A DNA stretch of 64,000 nucleotides from Patescibacteria group bacterium (GCA_041651015.1 JBAZKA010000003.1:42572-106571), one strand, 5' to 3'; shown: positions 7,841 to 58,615, numbered from the stretch's first letter. Notes: generated by a model not told the origin, from the letters alone. Translations and numbers: made by a program.

Positions 7841-7908
7841 TCTGGATCCCCGCCTTCGCGGGGATGACACTGCCGAAGGGATTCCTCGGCTTCGCTCGGA
7901 ATGACAGT
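7841..7908. repeat. Composite GC-rich palindromic repeat (module B GGATCCCCGCCTTCGCGGGGATGACAC + module A CCGAAGGGATTCCTCGGCTTCGCTCGGAATGACAG)
   Basis: Module B matches 52024-52050 and 58568-58615. Module A matches 41255-41318. Made of nested short hairpins. Intergenic here. Confidence 0.7.
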
Positions 7909-7910
7909 TT

Positions 7911-9272
7911 TTACACCTCCACCGCCTCCTCCGGATCAGCCACGGAAACTCGCACGCCCAATTCACTCTTAATTTTATCGGCTAAAGGCTGGCTTTGCTC
8001 GGGCTCGCCGTGATTCAAGACCACGCATTTGGGCGTTGAACCGTTGTTTTTAATCCAATTAAAAATTTTAATTCTATCCGCGTGCGCCGAGAGCACATCA
8101 ATAAACTCCACATGGCATTTGACTGCCACGTGTTCATTCAAGACGTCCACATGAGTCGCGCCATCCAAAATCTTCCTGCCCGGCGTGTGCATGGCTTGGA
8201 AACCGGTGAGAAATAAAGTATTGCGATTATCAGACAAATAGCGCAACGCGTGATACTGGATGCGTCCGCCGTTCATCATACCCGAACCGGCAATAATAAT
8301 TTTTTGGCCAATGACCGTATTGATGCGCTTGGAATCATCGCGCGAACGGGTCATTTTCAATCCGCCGAATTGGAACAAATCATCACCGGACCGGATATAC
8401 CTTTCCGCTTCTTCATCAAAATATTGCGTGTAGCGGTTAAACACGCCCGTTGCGTTGATGGCGAGCGGGCTGTCCAAAAAAATCGGAATGTTCGGCGGTA
8501 AAACTTGGTCGCGGTCAATCAAATCATTTAAATCATACAAAATTTCCTGGGTGCGTTCCACGGAAAAAGCCGGCATCATCAAAGTACCGCCCCGCTCAAG
8601 CGCCTCGGCCACAACTTTTTTAATGGCAGACTTGCGGTCAATACTCGTGTCGTGTTCGCGGTCGCCATAAGTGGACTCGCAAATCAGCAAATAAACATCT
8701 TTGGGCAAGGCGTCGGTATCGCGTAAAATCGGGACATTCACATTGCCCAGGTCGCCGGAAAAAACAACTTTTTTGCCGGCTAAATTTATTTCCAAAAATG
8801 CCGAGCCGAAAATATGACCGGCTTCATAAAATTTAAACCTGATGTTTGATGCCGGTAAATCAAAATCATCATAATAATCCACTTGGCGCATCATACCGAT
8901 AACCTTGGCCACATCATCTAAATTATACAGAGCCGGCCGGCCAAATTTCCGGGCGTGATATTCCATGATTTCGCATGCATCCTCCAAAATCAATCTGGCG
9001 ATTTCAATAGTCGGCGGGGTGGCATAAATTTGCCCGCTGAATCCGCGCTTTATGAGCAACGGCAAGCGTCCGACATGGTCCAAATGCGCGTGCGTGACAA
9101 ACACAGCCGTGAGAGCGCTGGCGTCAAAAGCAAATGGGTCGGCATTACGGTCTTCCACAAAGTCCCCTCCCTGAAACATCCCGCAATCAACCAAAATTTT
9201 AATATCTCCCTCTTCCAGCAAACTGCACGAACCGGTGACTTCTCCGGCCGCGCCAAAAAATGATAATTTCAT
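7911..9272 (-). CDS. metallo-beta-lactamase / beta-CASP family ribonuclease (RNase J/CPSF-like, COG1236-type)
   Basis: 'FGAAGEVTGSCSLLEEGDIKILVDCGMFQGG' and 'HAHLDHVGRLP' (the HxHxDH MBL motif). About 450 aa with a beta-CASP C-terminus. Confidence 0.7.
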   Translation of the reverse strand: MKLSFFGAAGEVTGSCSLLEEGDIKILVDCGMFQGGDFVEDRNADPFAFDASALTAVFVTHAHLDHVGRLPLLIKRGFSGQIYATPPTIEIARLILEDACEIMEYHARKFGRPALYNLDDVAKVIGMMRQVDYYDDFDLPASNIRFKFYEAGHIFGSAFLEINLAGKKVVFSGDLGNVNVPILRDTDALPKDVYLLICESTYGDREHDTSIDRKSAIKKVVAEALERGGTLMMPAFSVERTQEILYDLNDLIDRDQVLPPNIPIFLDSPLAINATGVFNRYTQYFDEEAERYIRSGDDLFQFGGLKMTRSRDDSKRINTVIGQKIIIAGSGMMNGGRIQYHALRYLSDNRNTLFLTGFQAMHTPGRKILDGATHVDVLNEHVAVKCHVEFIDVLSAHADRIKIFNWIKNNGSTPKCVVLNHGEPEQSQPLADKIKSELGVRVSVADPEEAVEV

Positions 9273-16126: not shown

Positions 16127-16966
16127 CTAACTACAGCTTGCATCGGTGGCCGCGCCGGCAGTATCGCCAAAACTGGCCGAAAAACTTTGCGTACTGAGAG
16201 TCTTGTCGCATTCGCTCGGCGCTTTACTAAATGCGGCGCAGATTGCTTGTTTGACCGCTTCTGGAGTACGGCCGGAATCAATTTGCACTCCATTAATCAC
16301 GAGGGTTGGCGAACCCTGCACGCCATATTTATCGTTTTCAGTTTGATGAACCGTATAAACCGGATAGGTATTTGAAAGCCATGTAGATTTGTCATTATAC
16401 ATTTCGGTAATTTTGAACGTTTTGTCTGTTTTGGCCACACAGGCGTTCATTTTGCTCGTATTCACACCCGCGGTTTTCAAACACGTCGTTGAATCTCCAC
16501 TACCGGTAAAACATTTCAAATAGGAATTAAATTTAGCAACCTGTTCTTTCTGAATACAATACTGCCGAGTATTCTCATCCAGTTCTTTCTTTTCATGCAT
16601 GGCATAAGACACAAACTTCACACTCATGTCGGCTTTTTTACCGAGCAACTCCATAACCGGTAAATAGGCTTTTTCCATTTGCAAACCATACGGGCAATAC
16701 GACATCACAAATAATTCCACCACCGGCTTGTCAGTTTTTGGCGCGACAGCCACCGTCTCCGTTTGATCGGTGGTATCTGAACTAGCGACCGCGGTATTTT
16801 TTACCGTTGAACCGGCCGAACAATTCAGACCATTAGTGGCGGCCATTACCGCCAAAACAATAAAGCCGATAGTACAGACAATCATCAACCCTCCAACAAT
16901 ACCAAGAATCATGGCGCTCTTTGGCTCCAGAATCTCAAACAAATTTTTCTTTGGCTCGTTCTCCAT
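16127..16966 (-). CDS. membrane-anchored DsbA-like thiol:disulfide oxidoreductase (thioredoxin fold)
   Basis: N-terminal TM, then 'VMSYCPYG' (a CxxC motif) and 'GSPTLVING' (DsbA-family cis-Pro loop region). Confidence 0.7.
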   Translation of the reverse strand: MENEPKKNLFEILEPKSAMILGIVGGLMIVCTIGFIVLAVMAATNGLNCSAGSTVKNTAVASSDTTDQTETVAVAPKTDKPVVELFVMSYCPYGLQMEKAYLPVMELLGKKADMSVKFVSYAMHEKKELDENTRQYCIQKEQVAKFNSYLKCFTGSGDSTTCLKTAGVNTSKMNACVAKTDKTFKITEMYNDKSTWLSNTYPVYTVHQTENDKYGVQGSPTLVINGVQIDSGRTPEAVKQAICAAFSKAPSECDKTLSTQSFSASFGDTAGAATDASCS

Positions 16967-21293: not shown

Positions 21294-22316
21294 TTAACGT
21301 CTATGATTGAACATGAGGGATTCTTTGTTGGCCACCACATATTCAATGGTTTTCTCTAAACCATCCTCCAAGCGCACCAAAGGCATCCAGCCCAGAGAAT
21401 TTTTGGCAAAGGTCAAATCGGCCGCGCCTTTTTTCGTTAAAAATAATAGCGGTTGCTCAAACACAATTTTGGAATCTGAATTAGTCATCTGAATAATCAT
21501 CTTGGCCACATCGGCAAAACTGACAATTTTATCCTCGCCCAAATTAGTAACTTTGACTTCATTGTCGGAAGACATCAACTTAACTAACCCGCTTACCATA
21601 TCATCAACATAACAAAGCGAGGTGGTAAAATTTTCATCACCGTAAATCACCAAATCCTCGTTGTTGATAGAATTGATGATAAAATCCGGAATTAGCAATC
21701 CTTGGAACAATCGCATGCGCGGACCAAAAGTGGTAAACACGCGCGCGATCTTCGCGTCCAATCCATGTACTTGCGAATAAGTCGCCACGCAGGTTTCGGC
21801 AAATTTTTTGCCTTCATCATAGCAGGCGCGTTCGGATAAATGATTGACCAAACCGATATCGGTCTCTTTAAAAACATTTTTCGCGTCGGTCGCATCACCA
21901 TAAACCACCGAGCTGGACGCAAAAACATATTTGGCTTTGTGCTTGACAGCCAAATCCAACGTATTAAACAAGGCATCGGAATTGGCGTGCAAGGTCTGCA
22001 TCTTCAAACTTTCAAAATCTTTGGGGCTGGTCGGGCAGGCCAAGTGATAAATTTCCTGGATGCCTTGAAATTTTATTTTGAACTTATTTAATTCTTCAAA
22101 TTGGTCCGGATCAAACGGCTGGGAGATATCGTGATTAATAAATTCGAAATCCGGATATTGCAAGAGGTGGCTGATGTTGGACGGGTCGGAATTAGAAAAA
22201 TCATCAATACAAATAACTTTGGCTTCTTTGAGCAAGCGCTCGCAGAGATGCGAGCCGATAAAACCGGCGCCGCCGGTGACGAGTACGTTTTTCTTTTCAA
22301 AAATTGGGGTATCCAT
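21294..22316 (-). CDS. NAD-dependent epimerase/dehydratase, UDP-glucuronate decarboxylase (UXS)-like
   Basis: 'VLVTGGAGFIGSHL', catalytic 'ACYDEGKKFAETC' (the YxxxK motif), and 'IYGDENFTTSLCYVDDMV'. Confidence 0.8.
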   Translation of the reverse strand: MDTPIFEKKNVLVTGGAGFIGSHLCERLLKEAKVICIDDFSNSDPSNISHLLQYPDFEFINHDISQPFDPDQFEELNKFKIKFQGIQEIYHLACPTSPKDFESLKMQTLHANSDALFNTLDLAVKHKAKYVFASSSVVYGDATDAKNVFKETDIGLVNHLSERACYDEGKKFAETCVATYSQVHGLDAKIARVFTTFGPRMRLFQGLLIPDFIINSINNEDLVIYGDENFTTSLCYVDDMVSGLVKLMSSDNEVKVTNLGEDKIVSFADVAKMIIQMTNSDSKIVFEQPLLFLTKKGAADLTFAKNSLGWMPLVRLEDGLEKTIEYVVANKESLMFNHRR

Positions 22317-22361: not shown

Positions 22362-22430
22362 GCGTGTCATCCTGAACTCGTTTCAGGATCTATGGCCGAA
22401 AGATGCTGAAACAAGTTCAGCATGACGGTG
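22362..22430. repeat. double-hairpin repeat variant (GTCATCCTGAACtcgTTTCAGGATC ... ATGCTGAACaaGTTCAGCAT-GAC)
   Basis: Read directly. Shares the GTCAT/ATGAC ends with the other repeat family members. Lies between the UXS-like and S8 peptidase genes. Confidence 0.55.
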
Positions 22431-40722: not shown

Positions 40723-41340
40723 CTATTTCGCGAGCATAACCCTTGCGGCCTTAATCACTCTGTCCCCCATCTTAAAACCACCGGAAATTTCTTTGACGAT
40801 TTCGTCTTCGCCCGCGCCTTCAATCGTTTCATGCCCGACCGCCTCATGATATTTCGGGTCAAACTTTTCACCAACAGTTTTTATTTCTTCAACGCCGTGC
40901 GCTTTCATAATATCAGCAAATTGTTTGAGCACGTGATTCACGCCGTCAAGCCAAGGATTATTTTCACCCGCGACTCCGCTCGTGGACATTTTCAAATGCT
41001 CGTAAACCGGAATAAATTCTTCCAATATCTGCTGTTCACTCATTTGCGCCCATTCGGCCCGGCGGGCCAAAGTTTCTTTTTGTAAATTTTGATAATCCGC
41101 CAGAGCTCTCTGCCAGCCAATTTTATATTCTTCAGCTTCGGCTTTTACCCTGTTAAATTCAGCTTCGCTGACGCCCCCAAGGGGCGATTTAACAGGGTTA
41201 ACTTTTTCACAATTCTTGCAGGTCTTGTGAAAAAATGATTTTTTTTCCGCTACTGCATCACCCCGAAGGGATTCCTCCGCTTCATTCGCTTCGCTCGCTC
41301 CGGTCGGAATGACAGGTGGAATATTTTGTTCGTCAGACAT
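40723..41340 (-). CDS. grpE: nucleotide exchange factor GrpE (N-terminal about 65 codons composed of repeat elements; true start uncertain)
   Basis: C-terminal GrpE core 'WQRALADYQNLQKE...KMSTSGVAGENNPWLDGVNHVLKQF...GHETIEGAGEDEIVKEI..GFKMGDRVIKAARV'. Confidence 0.8.
   Translation of the reverse strand: MSDEQNIPPVIPTGASEANEAEESLRGDAVAEKKSFFHKTCKNCEKVNPVKSPLGGVSEAEFNRVKAEAEEYKIGWQRALADYQNLQKETLARRAEWAQMSEQQILEEFIPVYEHLKMSTSGVAGENNPWLDGVNHVLKQFADIMKAHGVEEIKTVGEKFDPKYHEAVGHETIEGAGEDEIVKEISGGFKMGDRVIKAARVMLAK
41148..41197. repeat. family-2 inverted-repeat element (CCCTGTTAAAT...CGCCCCCAAGGGGCG...ATTTAACAGGG) inside the grpE 5' coding region
   Basis: Matches 9281-9335. Would be translated as NPVKSPLGGVSEAEF. 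Confidence 0.55.
41255..41318. repeat. module-A palindromic repeat (CCCGAAGGGATTCCTCCGCTTC...CGGAATGACAGG) inside the grpE 5' coding region
   Basis: Matches 7871-7908. Would be translated as PTGASEANEAEESLRGDAV. Confidence 0.6.
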
Positions 41341-51125: not shown

Positions 51126-51276
51126 TAAAAAAACCCGCCCCAGTCGGGCAGATTTTGAGACTTAGAATATTCAAAGTCTACCCACTAGGTCAGGAGGATA
51201 AAAGATACGCCAACAAAGCTAGACCAGGTTTTTATTTGATGATTGTGCATCATAAACACACCATTATTTCTGCCGC

Positions 51277-51360
51277 GGAAGGAGAGGGATTCGAACCCTC
51301 GATACCTTTCGGTATACATGCTTTCCAAGCATGCGCCATCGACCACTAGGCGACCCTTCC
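51277..51360 (-). tRNA. tRNA-Ser (anticodon GGA), type II with long variable arm
   Basis: Minus strand: 'GGAAGGGtcGCCtagtggtcgatGGCgCATGCttGGAaaGCATGtataccgaaaggtatcGAGGGttcgaatCCCTCtccttccG'. Folds as a cloverleaf with a 7-bp acceptor stem, T-loop TTCGAAT, and discriminator G. Confidence 0.85.
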
Positions 51361-51364
51361 AATT

Positions 51365-52183
51365 TTATTTTTGTTGTTTGATTCTACCCCAAACACGCCA
51401 TAAAGTCAAGATGATAAAAAACCCAACAATCCCCCACTGCGCCGGAGTTAAATGCCAATACCGCGCATCGGCGCCAATAACGTCATCGGCCCGAAGAAAA
51501 TCCAAAAAAAATCTGCCGAACGCGTAAAGCATAAACCCGAATACGGGTGAACCGACTTTTTTTATCACCCGAACACGGCGCGTGAATAATAAAATGAAAA
51601 AAATAATCAATGCCAGAATGGAATCCATCAGCCCCAAATCATAACGCGCGCCATAAGGAAAATTCACGGACAAGAAAAAATTCGTCAGACGTCCGACGTG
51701 GTCGTGAATCAAAAAACATCCGATGCGTCCAATCGCCCAGCCCAACCAAAAATATATGCCGATAATTTCCGCGTATGGTCTGAAATCCGTCCATTTTATT
51801 TTTTTATTTTTTAGAAATATCCAAAGACCGGCCAGCGCTCCCGCAAATCCACCAAGAGAAGACGCCCCGCCGTGCCAAATTTTTAGAATTTCCGCGGGAT
51901 TTTCCCAATAATAAATTGGTTCGTAAAAAATAATGTGAAAAATTCTGGCGCCGATGAAACCGCCGAAAATCAGCCAAAAGAATACGCTCCACATGGTCTC
52001 GGGATTCAAGATGACGCCCTCCTGGATTCCCGCCTTCGCGGGAATGACACGAACGGACGCTTTCATAATTTCCCGCAAACAAAAAAATAAAGCAATGAGC
52101 GCGCCCAGCGCCACGCAAATCCCCCAGACCTGCAGGGTAATCGGTCCGAGCGAAATTGTTTGCCAAGAAAAATACGGGATCAT
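51365..52183 (-). CDS. lgt: prolipoprotein diacylglyceryl transferase Lgt, carrying an in-frame repeat-element insertion in the TM1-TM2 loop
   Basis: 'ISLGPITLQVWGICVALGALIALFF', 'FFWLIFGGFIGARIFHIIFYEP', 'HGGASSLGGFAGA'. Loop residues 45-55 'RVIPAKAGIQE' are encoded by repeat 52024-52050. Confidence 0.85.
   Translation of the reverse strand: MIPYFSWQTISLGPITLQVWGICVALGALIALFFCLREIMKASVRVIPAKAGIQEGVILNPETMWSVFFWLIFGGFIGARIFHIIFYEPIYYWENPAEILKIWHGGASSLGGFAGALAGLWIFLKNKKIKWTDFRPYAEIIGIYFWLGWAIGRIGCFLIHDHVGRLTNFFLSVNFPYGARYDLGLMDSILALIIFFILLFTRRVRVIKKVGSPVFGFMLYAFGRFFLDFLRADDVIGADARYWHLTPAQWGIVGFFIILTLWRVWGRIKQQK
52024..52050. repeat. module-B palindromic repeat GGATTCCCGCCTTCGCGGGAATGACAC inside the lgt coding sequence (in frame)
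   Basis: Identical core at 7845-7870 and 58568-58615. The ATTCCC-N8-GGGAAT hairpin is encoded as VIPAKAGIQ. Confidence 0.7.
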
Positions 52184-53538
52184 TTTTGTCTAACGAGATT
52201 CAACAGCTCATTAATATCATCAGTGACACGGCAAAGTTCACGATCGCCGTGGCTGATCGTTTTGAAATCCGTATACATTACATTGATAAAATCCAAAAGC
52301 GGTTGCCAAAACTCACGGCCGTAAAGCACGAGCGGCATGGGTTCAACTTTTTTTGTTTCCACTAAGGTCAAAAGTTCAAATAATTGGTGAAGAGTACCAT
52401 ACCCGCCCGGAAAAAACGCAAAACCATGCGATGGCGCGGTGATAATTAATTTGCGCACGAATGGAAAAGTAAAACCAATAGTCCGTGACAAATAATTATT
52501 CCGGCGTTCCACTCCGCGCACACGCATATTAATACCAACACTCTCGCCGCCGGATTCATAAGCGCCACGGCTGACCGCTTCCATGATACCCGGACCGCCG
52601 CCGGTAATAGTCATATAGCCGTTCAACGCGAGTTCCCGGCCAAGATTGCGCGCATCTTCATAATATTTTGTGCCCGGCATGATGCTTTTGGTACCAAGCA
52701 CGGTGACATCATTTTTTACTTTATTCAAAAATTCAAAACCCTCCACCAATTCGGCCATAATCCGAAATATTCTCCACTCCACCTCGCGTTTATCCGCGCC
52801 GTGCAAATCAAAATCATTGGGTCGGTCGGTCGTATTTTTTATTAAATTAAAAGCATCCTCCGCGGTATCCACTACATGCCAATTTTTCAAATCCGCTTCC
52901 ACAATCGCGTTTGCGATTTGGCCGGATTTTTCCCGCAAAAATTTTAAAATTGGATTCCAAAAATCCGAACCGACCAGCACTACCGGCACGTCCGGCATAT
53001 AGCCCTGTTCAATCAAATCCACCACTTCAAAAAATTCATCCAAAGTGCCAAATCCTCCCGGGAAAAACACGAAGGCGTTGGCCGGCGAAGTGAGCATTAC
53101 TTTGCGAGTGAAGAAATAATAAAACGCGGCCGATTCTTTGACATACGGGTTGATACGCTGTTCAAACGGCAGTTGAATGTTGAGGCCGATTGATTCACCG
53201 CCGGCTTCAAAAGCGCCGCGGTTGGCCGCTTCCATGATACCCGGACCGCCGCCGGTAATGGTGGTAAAATTATTTTTGGCCAACAAACGCCCAAGTTCAA
53301 CCGCTATTTTATAATATTTGGAATTTGGCGTAATGCGCGCCGAGCCCAAAATCGTCACTTCATTTTTCAATTTGCCCAAAAATTCAAAACCTTCCACGAA
53401 CTCAGACATAATTTTAAAAATCCGCCATGATTCGCGGTAATCAACAGCCGCGCCGGCAGTGGCGATTTTTTGTTCCTCGGTAAAATCATGGACCTCGGGC
53501 AAATTTTTTAGTTCTTCTACGGCAATTTTCTGGGACAT
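52180..53538 (-). CDS. tandem double LOG-family (TIGR00730 / lysine-decarboxylase-like) protein
   Basis: Two full repeats: 'TITGGGPGIMEAANRGAFEAGGESIGLNIQLPFEQ...' and 'MTITGGGPGIMEAVSRGAYESGGESVGINMRV...', each with 'FFPGG(F/Y)GTL(D/H)E(F/L)FE' C-terminal motifs. Confidence 0.75.
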   Translation of the reverse strand: MSQKIAVEELKNLPEVHDFTEEQKIATAGAAVDYRESWRIFKIMSEFVEGFEFLGKLKNEVTILGSARITPNSKYYKIAVELGRLLAKNNFTTITGGGPGIMEAANRGAFEAGGESIGLNIQLPFEQRINPYVKESAAFYYFFTRKVMLTSPANAFVFFPGGFGTLDEFFEVVDLIEQGYMPDVPVVLVGSDFWNPILKFLREKSGQIANAIVEADLKNWHVVDTAEDAFNLIKNTTDRPNDFDLHGADKREVEWRIFRIMAELVEGFEFLNKVKNDVTVLGTKSIMPGTKYYEDARNLGRELALNGYMTITGGGPGIMEAVSRGAYESGGESVGINMRVRGVERRNNYLSRTIGFTFPFVRKLIITAPSHGFAFFPGGYGTLHQLFELLTLVETKKVEPMPLVLYGREFWQPLLDFINVMYTDFKTISHGDRELCRVTDDINELLNLVRQK

Positions 53539-57765: not shown

Positions 57766-58572
57766 TTAGCGTTTGTTATTGGTATGCATGCGGTGCATGG
57801 CGCGGAAATGATCCATGGAACCGACCGTCTCCTCGCGAATACTCTTGCCGGTCAAAGCGAGAAACGCGTCTTCCAGCGAATTGGTATTGGTTTGCTTTTT
57901 CAAATCATCGGCCGTACCTGAGGCAATAATTTTCCCATGGTCAATCACGGCAATCCGATCGGCGATGCGCTCAGCTTCTTCCATGTAATGCGTGGAAAAA
58001 AATATTGTAGTCTTTTCGTTTTTATTTAGCTCGCGCAGATGCGCCCACAAAGCATTTCTGGTTTGCGGGTCCAATCCGAGAGTCGGCTCGTCAAGAAAAA
58101 ATATTTTCGGATGATGCAAAAGTCCGCGGGCGATTTCCAACCGGCGCTTCATTCCGCCGGAAAATTCTTTGACCAAATTATCTCGGCGTTCCCACAGTTC
58201 CACGAACTTGAGCAAATATTCAATTCTCTCTTTGCGTAATTTATCCGGCACATCATACAACACGCCGTGAAATTCCATATTTTCATAAGCGGTCAGATCA
58301 TCATCCAAACTCGGATCTTGGAACACAATACCAAATGACCGGCGGGCTTCATCGGATTCACGCACCGGGTCATGCCCGTTCAAATCCATTTCGCCCGAAG
58401 TCGGCTTGAGCAAAGTGGTCAGCATTTTAATGGTGGTGGATTTACCCGCGCCATTCGGACCGAGAAAAGCAAAAATTTCTCCTTCTTTAACTTCAAAGGA
58501 AATGTTGTCCACGGCCGTAAAGCCGTCAAATTTTTTCGTCAGATTTTTGACTGATATCATATTTTTTGTCAT
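57766..58572 (-). CDS. ABC transporter ATP-binding protein
   Basis: 'LGPNGAGKSTTIKML', 'LSGGMKRRLEIARGL', and 'IFFLDEPTLGLD'. Confidence 0.9.
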   Translation of the reverse strand: MTKNMISVKNLTKKFDGFTAVDNISFEVKEGEIFAFLGPNGAGKSTTIKMLTTLLKPTSGEMDLNGHDPVRESDEARRSFGIVFQDPSLDDDLTAYENMEFHGVLYDVPDKLRKERIEYLLKFVELWERRDNLVKEFSGGMKRRLEIARGLLHHPKIFFLDEPTLGLDPQTRNALWAHLRELNKNEKTTIFFSTHYMEEAERIADRIAVIDHGKIIASGTADDLKKQTNTNSLEDAFLALTGKSIREETVGSMDHFRAMHRMHTNNKR

Positions 58573-58615
58573 TCCCGCACCCGCTTCGCGAGTATAAACT
58601 CCGGCGGGAATCCAG
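58568..58615. repeat. module-B-like palindromic repeat GTCATTCCCGC...GCGGGAATCCAG overlapping the annotated ABC ATPase start codon
   Basis: The GTCAT end of the repeat is the reverse complement of the ATGAC at the annotated start. A second Met follows 4 codons later. Confidence 0.6.

Follow-up and report, generated by a model that had tools for sequence, protein, structure and literature searches.

How does a palindromic repeat come to lie in frame inside a conserved gene, what kind of repeat is it, and why is it kept there? These questions are raised by lgt in a 64,000-nucleotide stretch of DNA from a Patescibacteria group bacterium (GCA_041651015.1 JBAZKA010000003.1:42572-106571), analysed here at its full length and called the window. 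A sequence-only reading of this stretch had placed a 27-nt element with an ATTCCC-N8-GGGAAT hairpin within the lgt reading frame, encoding RVIPAKAGIQE in the loop between the first two transmembrane helices (TM1 and TM2). It had proposed an in-frame insertion, naming an alignment with orthologues as the check.

Profile searches identified the product of the reading frame as Lgt. TIGR00544 matched with E = 7e-24, together with other Lgt models, with a score (84.7 bits) that lies under the equivalog cut-off of 118.9, and E. coli Lgt (PDB 5AZB) matched with E = 1e-6. The search returned 1329 homologues at E<=1e-10, and PF01790 was present in all 120 of the matches listed. An identical protein at NCBI, encoded on a 186-kb contig of a Patescibacteria MAG, is named prolipoprotein diacylglyceryl transferase. 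Sequence and fold agree on membership in the Lgt family (PF01790/TIGR00544): all 33 invariant columns of a 116-sequence family alignment are kept, and the helix order of the confident, multi-helix AlphaFold model agrees with the 5AZB alignment. Deletion of lgt is documented as lethal for most Gram-negative bacteria (PMC4728403). The G+C content of the window is about 44%, and its GC skew is negative throughout on the plus strand. Upstream of lgt lies a gene on the same strand, 52180-53538 (-), for a tandem two-domain LOG/lysine-decarboxylase-like protein of 452 aa; its stop codon overlaps the lgt start (ATGA), an arrangement also found in relatives. A tRNA-Ser(GGA) gene, 51275-51360 (-), begins 4 nt after lgt.

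Table 1. The lgt gene, its insertion and the hairpin elements of the window, in window coordinates
Feature	Position	Strand	Basis
lgt, prolipoprotein diacylglyceryl transferase, 272 aa, host of the insertion	51365..52183	-	reading frame, Lgt profiles and homologues
In-frame insertion, 45 nt, encoding V44-I58 (VRVIPAKAGIQEGVI)	52010..52054	-	protein and DNA alignments with empty-site orthologues
NTS/SRM core TGTCATTCCCGCGAAGGCGGGAATCCAG in lgt	52022..52049	-	27/28 to the NTS consensus; SRM pattern match
Second NTS copy, intergenic, with the compensatory stem variant ATCCCC/GGGGAT	7842..7869	-	SRM and 27-mer matches
Type-2 hairpin GTCATTCCGAGCGAAGCCGAGGAATCC with the same GTCAT...GGAATCC ends, intergenic, adjoining the second NTS copy	7879..7905	-	sequence
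Long-loop NTS variant (25 nt between the same arms), at the 5' end of an ABC ATPase gene	58568..58613	+	sequence
grpE, N-terminal region: probable in-frame type-2 hairpin (VIPTGASEANEAEES)	41269..41313	-	absent from grpE of two relatives
GTCAT...GGATC hairpin variant GTCATCCTGAACTCGTTTCAGGATCT, intergenic, different stem	22366..22391	+	sequence

The alignment check bore the proposed insertion out. In a 21-sequence alignment, a segment that the window Lgt carries between LREI.K.. and LNPE is missing from P0003 (74-78% identity to the window protein), P0004 (74-75%), P0006 (67-71%) and all more distant sequences, the identity ranges given for P0002-P0006 depending on the alignment used. The stretch from FFCL to NPETMW is exactly 8 aa long in 117 of the 120 homologues listed, the exceptions being the window (23 residues), P0002 (20) and P0005 (41). 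Across 71 diverse Lgt representatives drawn from a 50%-identity library, the distance between G21 and R80 is 43 residues in 58 proteins and 37-44 in 67, compared with 58 residues in the window Lgt. Considering that orthologues are free of the segment and that the loop is held at 8 aa in nearly all homologues listed, the segment is, on these alignments, a true insertion and not ordinary loop sequence. Its edges, taken from a DNA alignment of the window lgt with five relatives, are ambiguous by about 6 nt (about two codons). The loop had been described as about 11 residues longer than that of E. coli Lgt; it is indeed longer, by about 13 aa relative to E. coli (HMMER alignment) and by 15 aa relative to the orthologues.

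The AlphaFold model of the window Lgt, built on 116 aligned sequences, has a mean pLDDT of 92.9. TM1 is predicted as a helix at residues 19-44 and TM2 at 61-87; between them, where the sequence-only reading had put the repeat peptide, lies a coil (45-60) whose block pLDDT is about 72. In the model the Lgt fold is kept and the insert is an unstructured coil. E. coli Lgt has its N-terminal strand, which comes before TM1, in the periplasmic head, and carries positive charge on its cytoplasmic face (PMC4728403); by homology, the TM1-TM2 loop of the window Lgt would be cytoplasmic. The insert is thus best described as a predicted cytoplasmic loop extension in an otherwise intact enzyme, and Lgt appears to tolerate it. 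As nucleic acid, the insert folds into a strong extended hairpin (RNA, -34.2 kcal/mol, z=-4.2; DNA, z=-3.5).

The 27-mer GGATTCCCGCCTTCGCGGGAATGACAC occurs exactly at 52024-52050 on the plus strand, as first described, and is read in frame as VIPAKAGIQ. Allowing up to three mismatches, it matches the window twice (at 52024 and 7844), compared with no match in 100 dinucleotide-preserving shuffles. At 52026-52045 it includes the palindrome ATTCCC-N8-GGGAAT, known as dRS3, which is contained in the 28-nt Neisseria Transformation Sequence, NTS, CGTCATTCCCGCGMAVGCGGGAATCYRG (Chenal et al. 2025, Nat Commun, PMC11893778). Under the search rule of that study, at most one mismatch to the consensus, the lgt copy is an NTS, differing in the first base alone (T for C on the lgt sense strand); T stands at this position in 38% of 144 copies from other genomes. 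The broader, degenerate Ssn-related motif (SRM), HGTCWYN(0-2)YYVSBRHN(0-5)WNVSBRGN(0-2)RNCYNB (PMC11893778), matches the window at 7842-7869 and 52022-52049, both on the minus strand, against a mean of 0.07 matches in 100 shuffles. As ssDNA the element is predicted to fold into a hairpin with an 8-bp stem and a 4-nt loop, extended by the flanks (-12.8 kcal/mol, z=-3.5). It is also repeated: 81 kb around the lgt copy (the window with L128 and L129) contain the strict form twice and the long-loop variant once, along with three related GTCAT...ATCC hairpins. To judge by sequence, the lgt element is a copy of the already described NTS/dRS3/SRM family. Rfam families do not cover the hairpin; the neighbouring tRNA was the sole match in that search.

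A species-representative genome collection contains exact copies of the 27-mer in at least 120 stretches from more than 12 phyla. Hosts among the matches listed include Proteobacteria, Dehalococcoidia, Planctomycetota, Nitrospirota, Gemmatimonadota, Omnitrophota and Zixibacteria, as well as a Rickettsia endosymbiont and five Patescibacteria MAGs. Outside the 27-mer, the flanks of 144 listed copies share only a pyrimidine at -1 (C in 59%, T in 38%) and a depletion of G upstream. Among the matches listed for L008-L127, close 27-mer pairs are convergent (plus, then minus) in 16 of 21 cases and divergent in none, with spacers of 17-340 nt, a doublet organisation resembling REPINs.

Two further copies had been reported in the window. 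The intergenic one at 7845-7870 is real; its 27-mer spans 7844-7870, just 3' of the gene 7911..9272(-), and carries two mismatches that compensate each other in the stem. The other, placed at 58568-58615 and described as the same element in an intergenic position, is related and keeps the same arms, but proved to be the long-loop variant of Table 1, abutting a gene. The tail of its loop, GTATAAACTCCGG, is shared with L063 4161-4203, a copy in a Falkowbacteria MAG, and the variant is therefore better seen as a conserved sub-family than as a decayed copy. The predicted start ATG of the ABC ATPase gene falls within the GTCAT of this element. In grpE (40723..41340, -) the probable hairpin reads GTCATTCCGA...GGAGGAATCC at the DNA level; the same gene has a further insert of 18 aa, VNPVKSPLGGVSEAEFNR, which grpE of the two relatives also lacks. 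The hairpin at 22366-22391 lies just upstream of an epimerase-like gene, 21294..22316(-).

Hairpin inserts recur in the Lgt loop of other lineages. P0002 (76-78% identity to the window Lgt), which comes from an independent metagenome sample (JGI 3300035208), carries an NTS in the same loop and the same frame, read as VIPAKAGIQ. Its stem is ATCCCC/GGGGAT, and its core matches that of the window at 25 of 27 nt, both differences being synonymous and compensatory. Between host codons and the GTCAT of the core, the 5' flank measures 12 nt in the window as against 3 nt in P0002; on the 3' side the two sequences show no relationship. P0002 is the sister of the insert-free P0004 (98% bootstrap; 88% aa and 87% nt identity), and the window lineage falls outside this pair. 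Since P0004 is empty, and since two gains are more parsimonious than one gain followed by two deletions that each restore an 8-aa loop, the NTS copies in the window and P0002 were likely gained independently. P0005 (64-71% identity) carries 99 additional nt, placed a few codons further upstream; they consist of a convergent pair of hairpins of the other type (type-2), with the same GTCAT...ATCC ends. In P0199, a distant Lgt (42% identity), a tandem pair of TCCCCC-N-GGGGGA hairpins occupies this TM1-TM2 loop. The P0199 hairpins are in frame (L134 3120-3200, SPFNKGGLRGISPFVKGGGKGDF); a second insert in this gene (L134 3640-3740), GC-rich and hairpin-like, lies between later helices. Peptides of these repeat types were absent from the other 265 Lgt sequences examined, and a scan of metagenome contigs with the window Lgt protein returned nothing closer than relatives at 44-52% identity. 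With four lineages and three hairpin types, these alignments mark the Lgt TM1-TM2 loop as a naturally permissive site.

Copies in frame are not confined to lgt. The contig that encodes P0002 (L001) carries a second NTS at 16921-16948, in frame within grpE but in another reading frame, giving CHSREGGNPDA. Here 42 nt with the NTS stand where the sister sequence (L002) has about 33 nt, and the event therefore looks like the replacement of a patch rather than a clean insertion. An NTS also lies in frame in prmC of a different Patescibacteria MAG (L052). In the Rickettsia endosymbiont of Polydrusus tereticollis (L044 862-4272), ileS contains an in-frame inverted pair of exact 27-mers between its anticodon-binding and C-terminal domains, which suggests that at least some of the in-frame palindromes of Rickettsia contain SRM hairpins. 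This ileS also encodes a hairpin peptide of the MLNQVQHDG type. Among the matches listed, the exact 27-mer is in frame in two further Pfam-supported genes, hsdM of Pseudomonas saliphila (L071) and an Eco57I-like methylase (L076). Long frames across the 27-mer in L020, L025, L049 and L088, all in GC-rich genomes, were rejected as coding sequence since they hold no Pfam domain. The sequence-only reading had known of no in-gene insertions for this element family; once the family is recognised, that impression gives way, both to these genes and to N. meningitidis, where 2% of NTS lie inside genes (PMC11893778).

In all six single in-frame copies the forward strand of the NTS is the sense strand, which is weak evidence for an orientation bias. 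By inspection, three of three forward frames and two of three reverse frames of the NTS are open. In a small sample of Patescibacteria loci not chosen through lgt, 3 of 19 GTCAT...ATCC hairpins are in frame in genes, to be compared with the 2% of NTS given for N. meningitidis. A literature search for repeat-derived peptides or in-frame palindromic repeats in Patescibacteria/CPR found no relevant report.

The targets of Ssn proteins are NTS/SRM hairpins, in Neisseria and in Wolbachia (PMC11893778). Ssn (cd10448) are small single-domain GIY-YIG proteins that bind the hairpin and cut ssDNA just upstream of it, on one strand only, and in N. meningitidis this cutting lowers the integration of transforming DNA (PMC11893778). 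An IS-like NTS-ssnA-NTS unit has been put forward for the copying of NTS, only as a proposal (PMC11893778). The same layout is seen in a Desulfobacterales locus (L102), where the 27-mer lies on both sides of a gene for a GIY-YIG protein of 96 aa, and at three further loci a GIY-YIG gene lies beside the repeat. Across the 81 kb around the lgt copy, no ssn or other GIY-YIG gene came up in a motif search, in tblastn with the GIY-YIG protein of L005 or with an HMM of Ssn-like proteins flanked by NTS, so that any interaction of the insert with an Ssn nuclease in this organism is hypothetical. The L005 protein is encoded in a relative (1520-1908), by a gene for 85 aa between lgt and tRNA-Ser, and shows 33% identity, over just 51 aa, to an NTS-flanked Ssn-like protein. 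This gene is bounded by a duplicated GGAGAGGTCGCCTA, the 5' end of the tRNA; the C-terminus ...GEVA, found in many Lgt homologues and in the L005 protein, is a translation of the start of tRNA-Ser.

No consistent direct repeat, and so no target-site duplication or insertion footprint, was found around the inserts of the window lgt, P0002 and L001 grpE; the hairpin arms of the insert serve as its inverted repeats. Half-site-guided insertion, suggested by host DNA beside the lgt and grpE sites that resembles the 3' arm of the NTS, was considered and rejected: for five empty sites (lgt of L002, L005 and L007; grpE of L002 and the window), a fraction of 0.23 to 0.99 of random 60-nt background windows scored at least as high against the NTS.

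The lgt copy resembles the described NTS/dRS3/SRM elements in 27 of 28 positions, in its oriented flanks GTCAT and ATCCAG, in its predicted ssDNA hairpin, in being multi-copy and spread across phyla, and in the occurrence of its 27-mer, unchanged, on either side of a small GIY-YIG gene in L102. It departs from them in that its host is a Patescibacteria MAG, a group absent from PMC11893778, in that the copy is intragenic and in frame, whereas that study reports the intragenic 2% without analysing them, and in having no ssn gene in the surrounding 81 kb. Another point of comparison is offered by the Rickettsia palindromic elements (RPE; Ogata et al. 2000, summarised in PMC10969869), which are about 100-150 bp long and encode a conserved peptide of 30-50 aa. 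RPE, too, are palindromic repeats that have entered housekeeping genes of a bacterium with a small genome while keeping the frame, at sites that the protein fold can accommodate. In-frame insertion at tolerated positions is what we see in lgt, grpE and prmC of Patescibacteria, and in ileS of the Rickettsia endosymbiont exact NTS 27-mers likewise lie in frame. The unit in lgt, in contrast, is a 28-nt hairpin in a 45-nt insert, well below RPE size.

REP/REPIN sequences are short extragenic hairpins that are almost never found in coding sequence, and their RAYT is an HUH/Y1 transposase. They share with the NTS the short hairpin, the frequent convergent doublets (seen in the 27-mer pairs described above) and a proposed dedicated ssDNA enzyme, but the enzyme family of the NTS is GIY-YIG (Ssn), not HUH/Y1, and the sequences differ. 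Intragenic ERIC and other MITEs (Delihas 2007; PMC10969869), elements of more than 100 bp with terminal inverted repeats and target-site duplications, give rise to in-frame fusions. They too are small mobile palindromic sequences with open frames inside genes; the lgt insert is shorter, and no target-site duplication was seen around it.

We consider the survival of a selfish NTS/SRM hairpin repeat at a permissive Lgt loop the best explanation of the locus, with a probability of about 0.8; the lgt insert is real but fairly ordinary selfish DNA in a coding region. The repeat, selfish or semi-domesticated and present in many bacterial phyla, would land widely. One copy entered lgt with an insertion of 45 nt in the TM1-TM2 loop, predicted to be cytoplasmic; a conserved gene would hold on to such copies only if their length, frame and position do no harm. 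This one would persist because its length is divisible by three, five of the six frames of the element are free of stops and the loop tolerates the added residues. The predicted outcome is a functional Lgt with a disordered extension of 15 residues and a presumably neutral peptide. Recurrence at this loop would then reflect selection that leaves only insertions at permissive sites, rather than sequence-specific targeting, and the presence of three unrelated hairpin types at one loop favours such filtering.

A different history would be a single ancestral insertion before the window, P0002, P0003 and P0004 lineages split, with precise loss in P0003 and P0004 and the core retained by selection or gene conversion. 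The inserts of the window and P0002 lie at the same or nearly the same codon and share a frame, and the agreement of their cores, with its two synonymous and compensatory changes, exceeds the 76% nt identity of the whole gene (binomial p ~0.03); this higher conservation could reflect one old insertion with a constrained hairpin. We nevertheless hold this history to be unlikely: it takes three events, two of them deletions restoring the exact 8-aa loop, where two gains suffice; the DNA around the P0002 insert resembles that of its sister P0004 and not that of the window; the 5' flanks differ in length; and both stem variants also occur elsewhere in each genome. It is harder still to credit that the lgt loop is a sequence- or structure-specific hotspot, for instance one at which an ssDNA enzyme, of Ssn type or another, acts on a half-site in host DNA. 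Inserts do occur in this one loop in four Lgt lineages, and the host sequence TTGCGGGAAATT beside the site resembles the 3' arm of the NTS, but the inserts belong to three unrelated hairpin families, the resemblance of empty sites to the NTS does not rise above that of random 60-nt windows, and 147 listed copies from other genomes have no flanks in common beyond the pyrimidine at -1.

Even less probable, in our estimate, is exaptation of the insert, in which its 15-aa loop or its strong mRNA or ssDNA hairpin would serve, for example, to pause translation once TM1 is made, to bind a partner or to hinder the recombination of incoming DNA at this locus. The RNA hairpin is unusually stable, its stem differs between the window and P0002 by compensatory changes, and NTS/Ssn modulates transformation in Neisseria (PMC11893778). 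Against this, the nearest relatives do without the insert while Lgt is otherwise conserved, conservation of the peptide stops at the core (ASVR/EGVI compared with D/SREI), the pLDDT of the insert is low, and elsewhere the element is read in other frames (HSREGGNP in grpE and prmC). A role for the insert hairpin is possible but unsupported. To an ordinary loop that resembles the repeat by chance, or to an assembly chimera, we give next to no weight; the close match to the published consensus with none in shuffles, the segment missing from orthologues with the frame preserved, and the comparable insert in an orthologue from the independent metagenome all speak against it.

Taken as a selfish repeat surviving at a permissive loop, the lgt insert extends the NTS/SRM-Ssn repeat family to Patescibacteria and documents in-frame NTS copies in the conserved genes lgt, grpE and prmC, where the paper describing the family mentions a 2% minority alone. 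A wider possibility, which we think doubtful, is that NTS/SRM-type and related hairpins enter coding loops in housekeeping genes of Patescibacteria at a much higher frequency than they do in Neisseria, as an RPE-like process in a second, unrelated lineage with reduced genomes. Filled and empty site pairs could then show copying, the grpE patch would hint at templated repair or gene conversion, and intragenic copies could mark genes for Ssn-type cleavage of incoming ssDNA in organisms thought to depend on DNA uptake. For annotation, the recurrent peptides VIPAKAGIQ, HSREGGNP, SFPRRRES, WIPAFAGMT and LDSRLRGND can be read as translations of one DNA repeat. The permissive TM1-TM2 loop would be useful for engineering or tagging Lgt, a drug-target enzyme, and the pairs of filled and empty sites (P0002 and P0004 in lgt; L001 and L002 in grpE) could help to establish how these hairpins spread.
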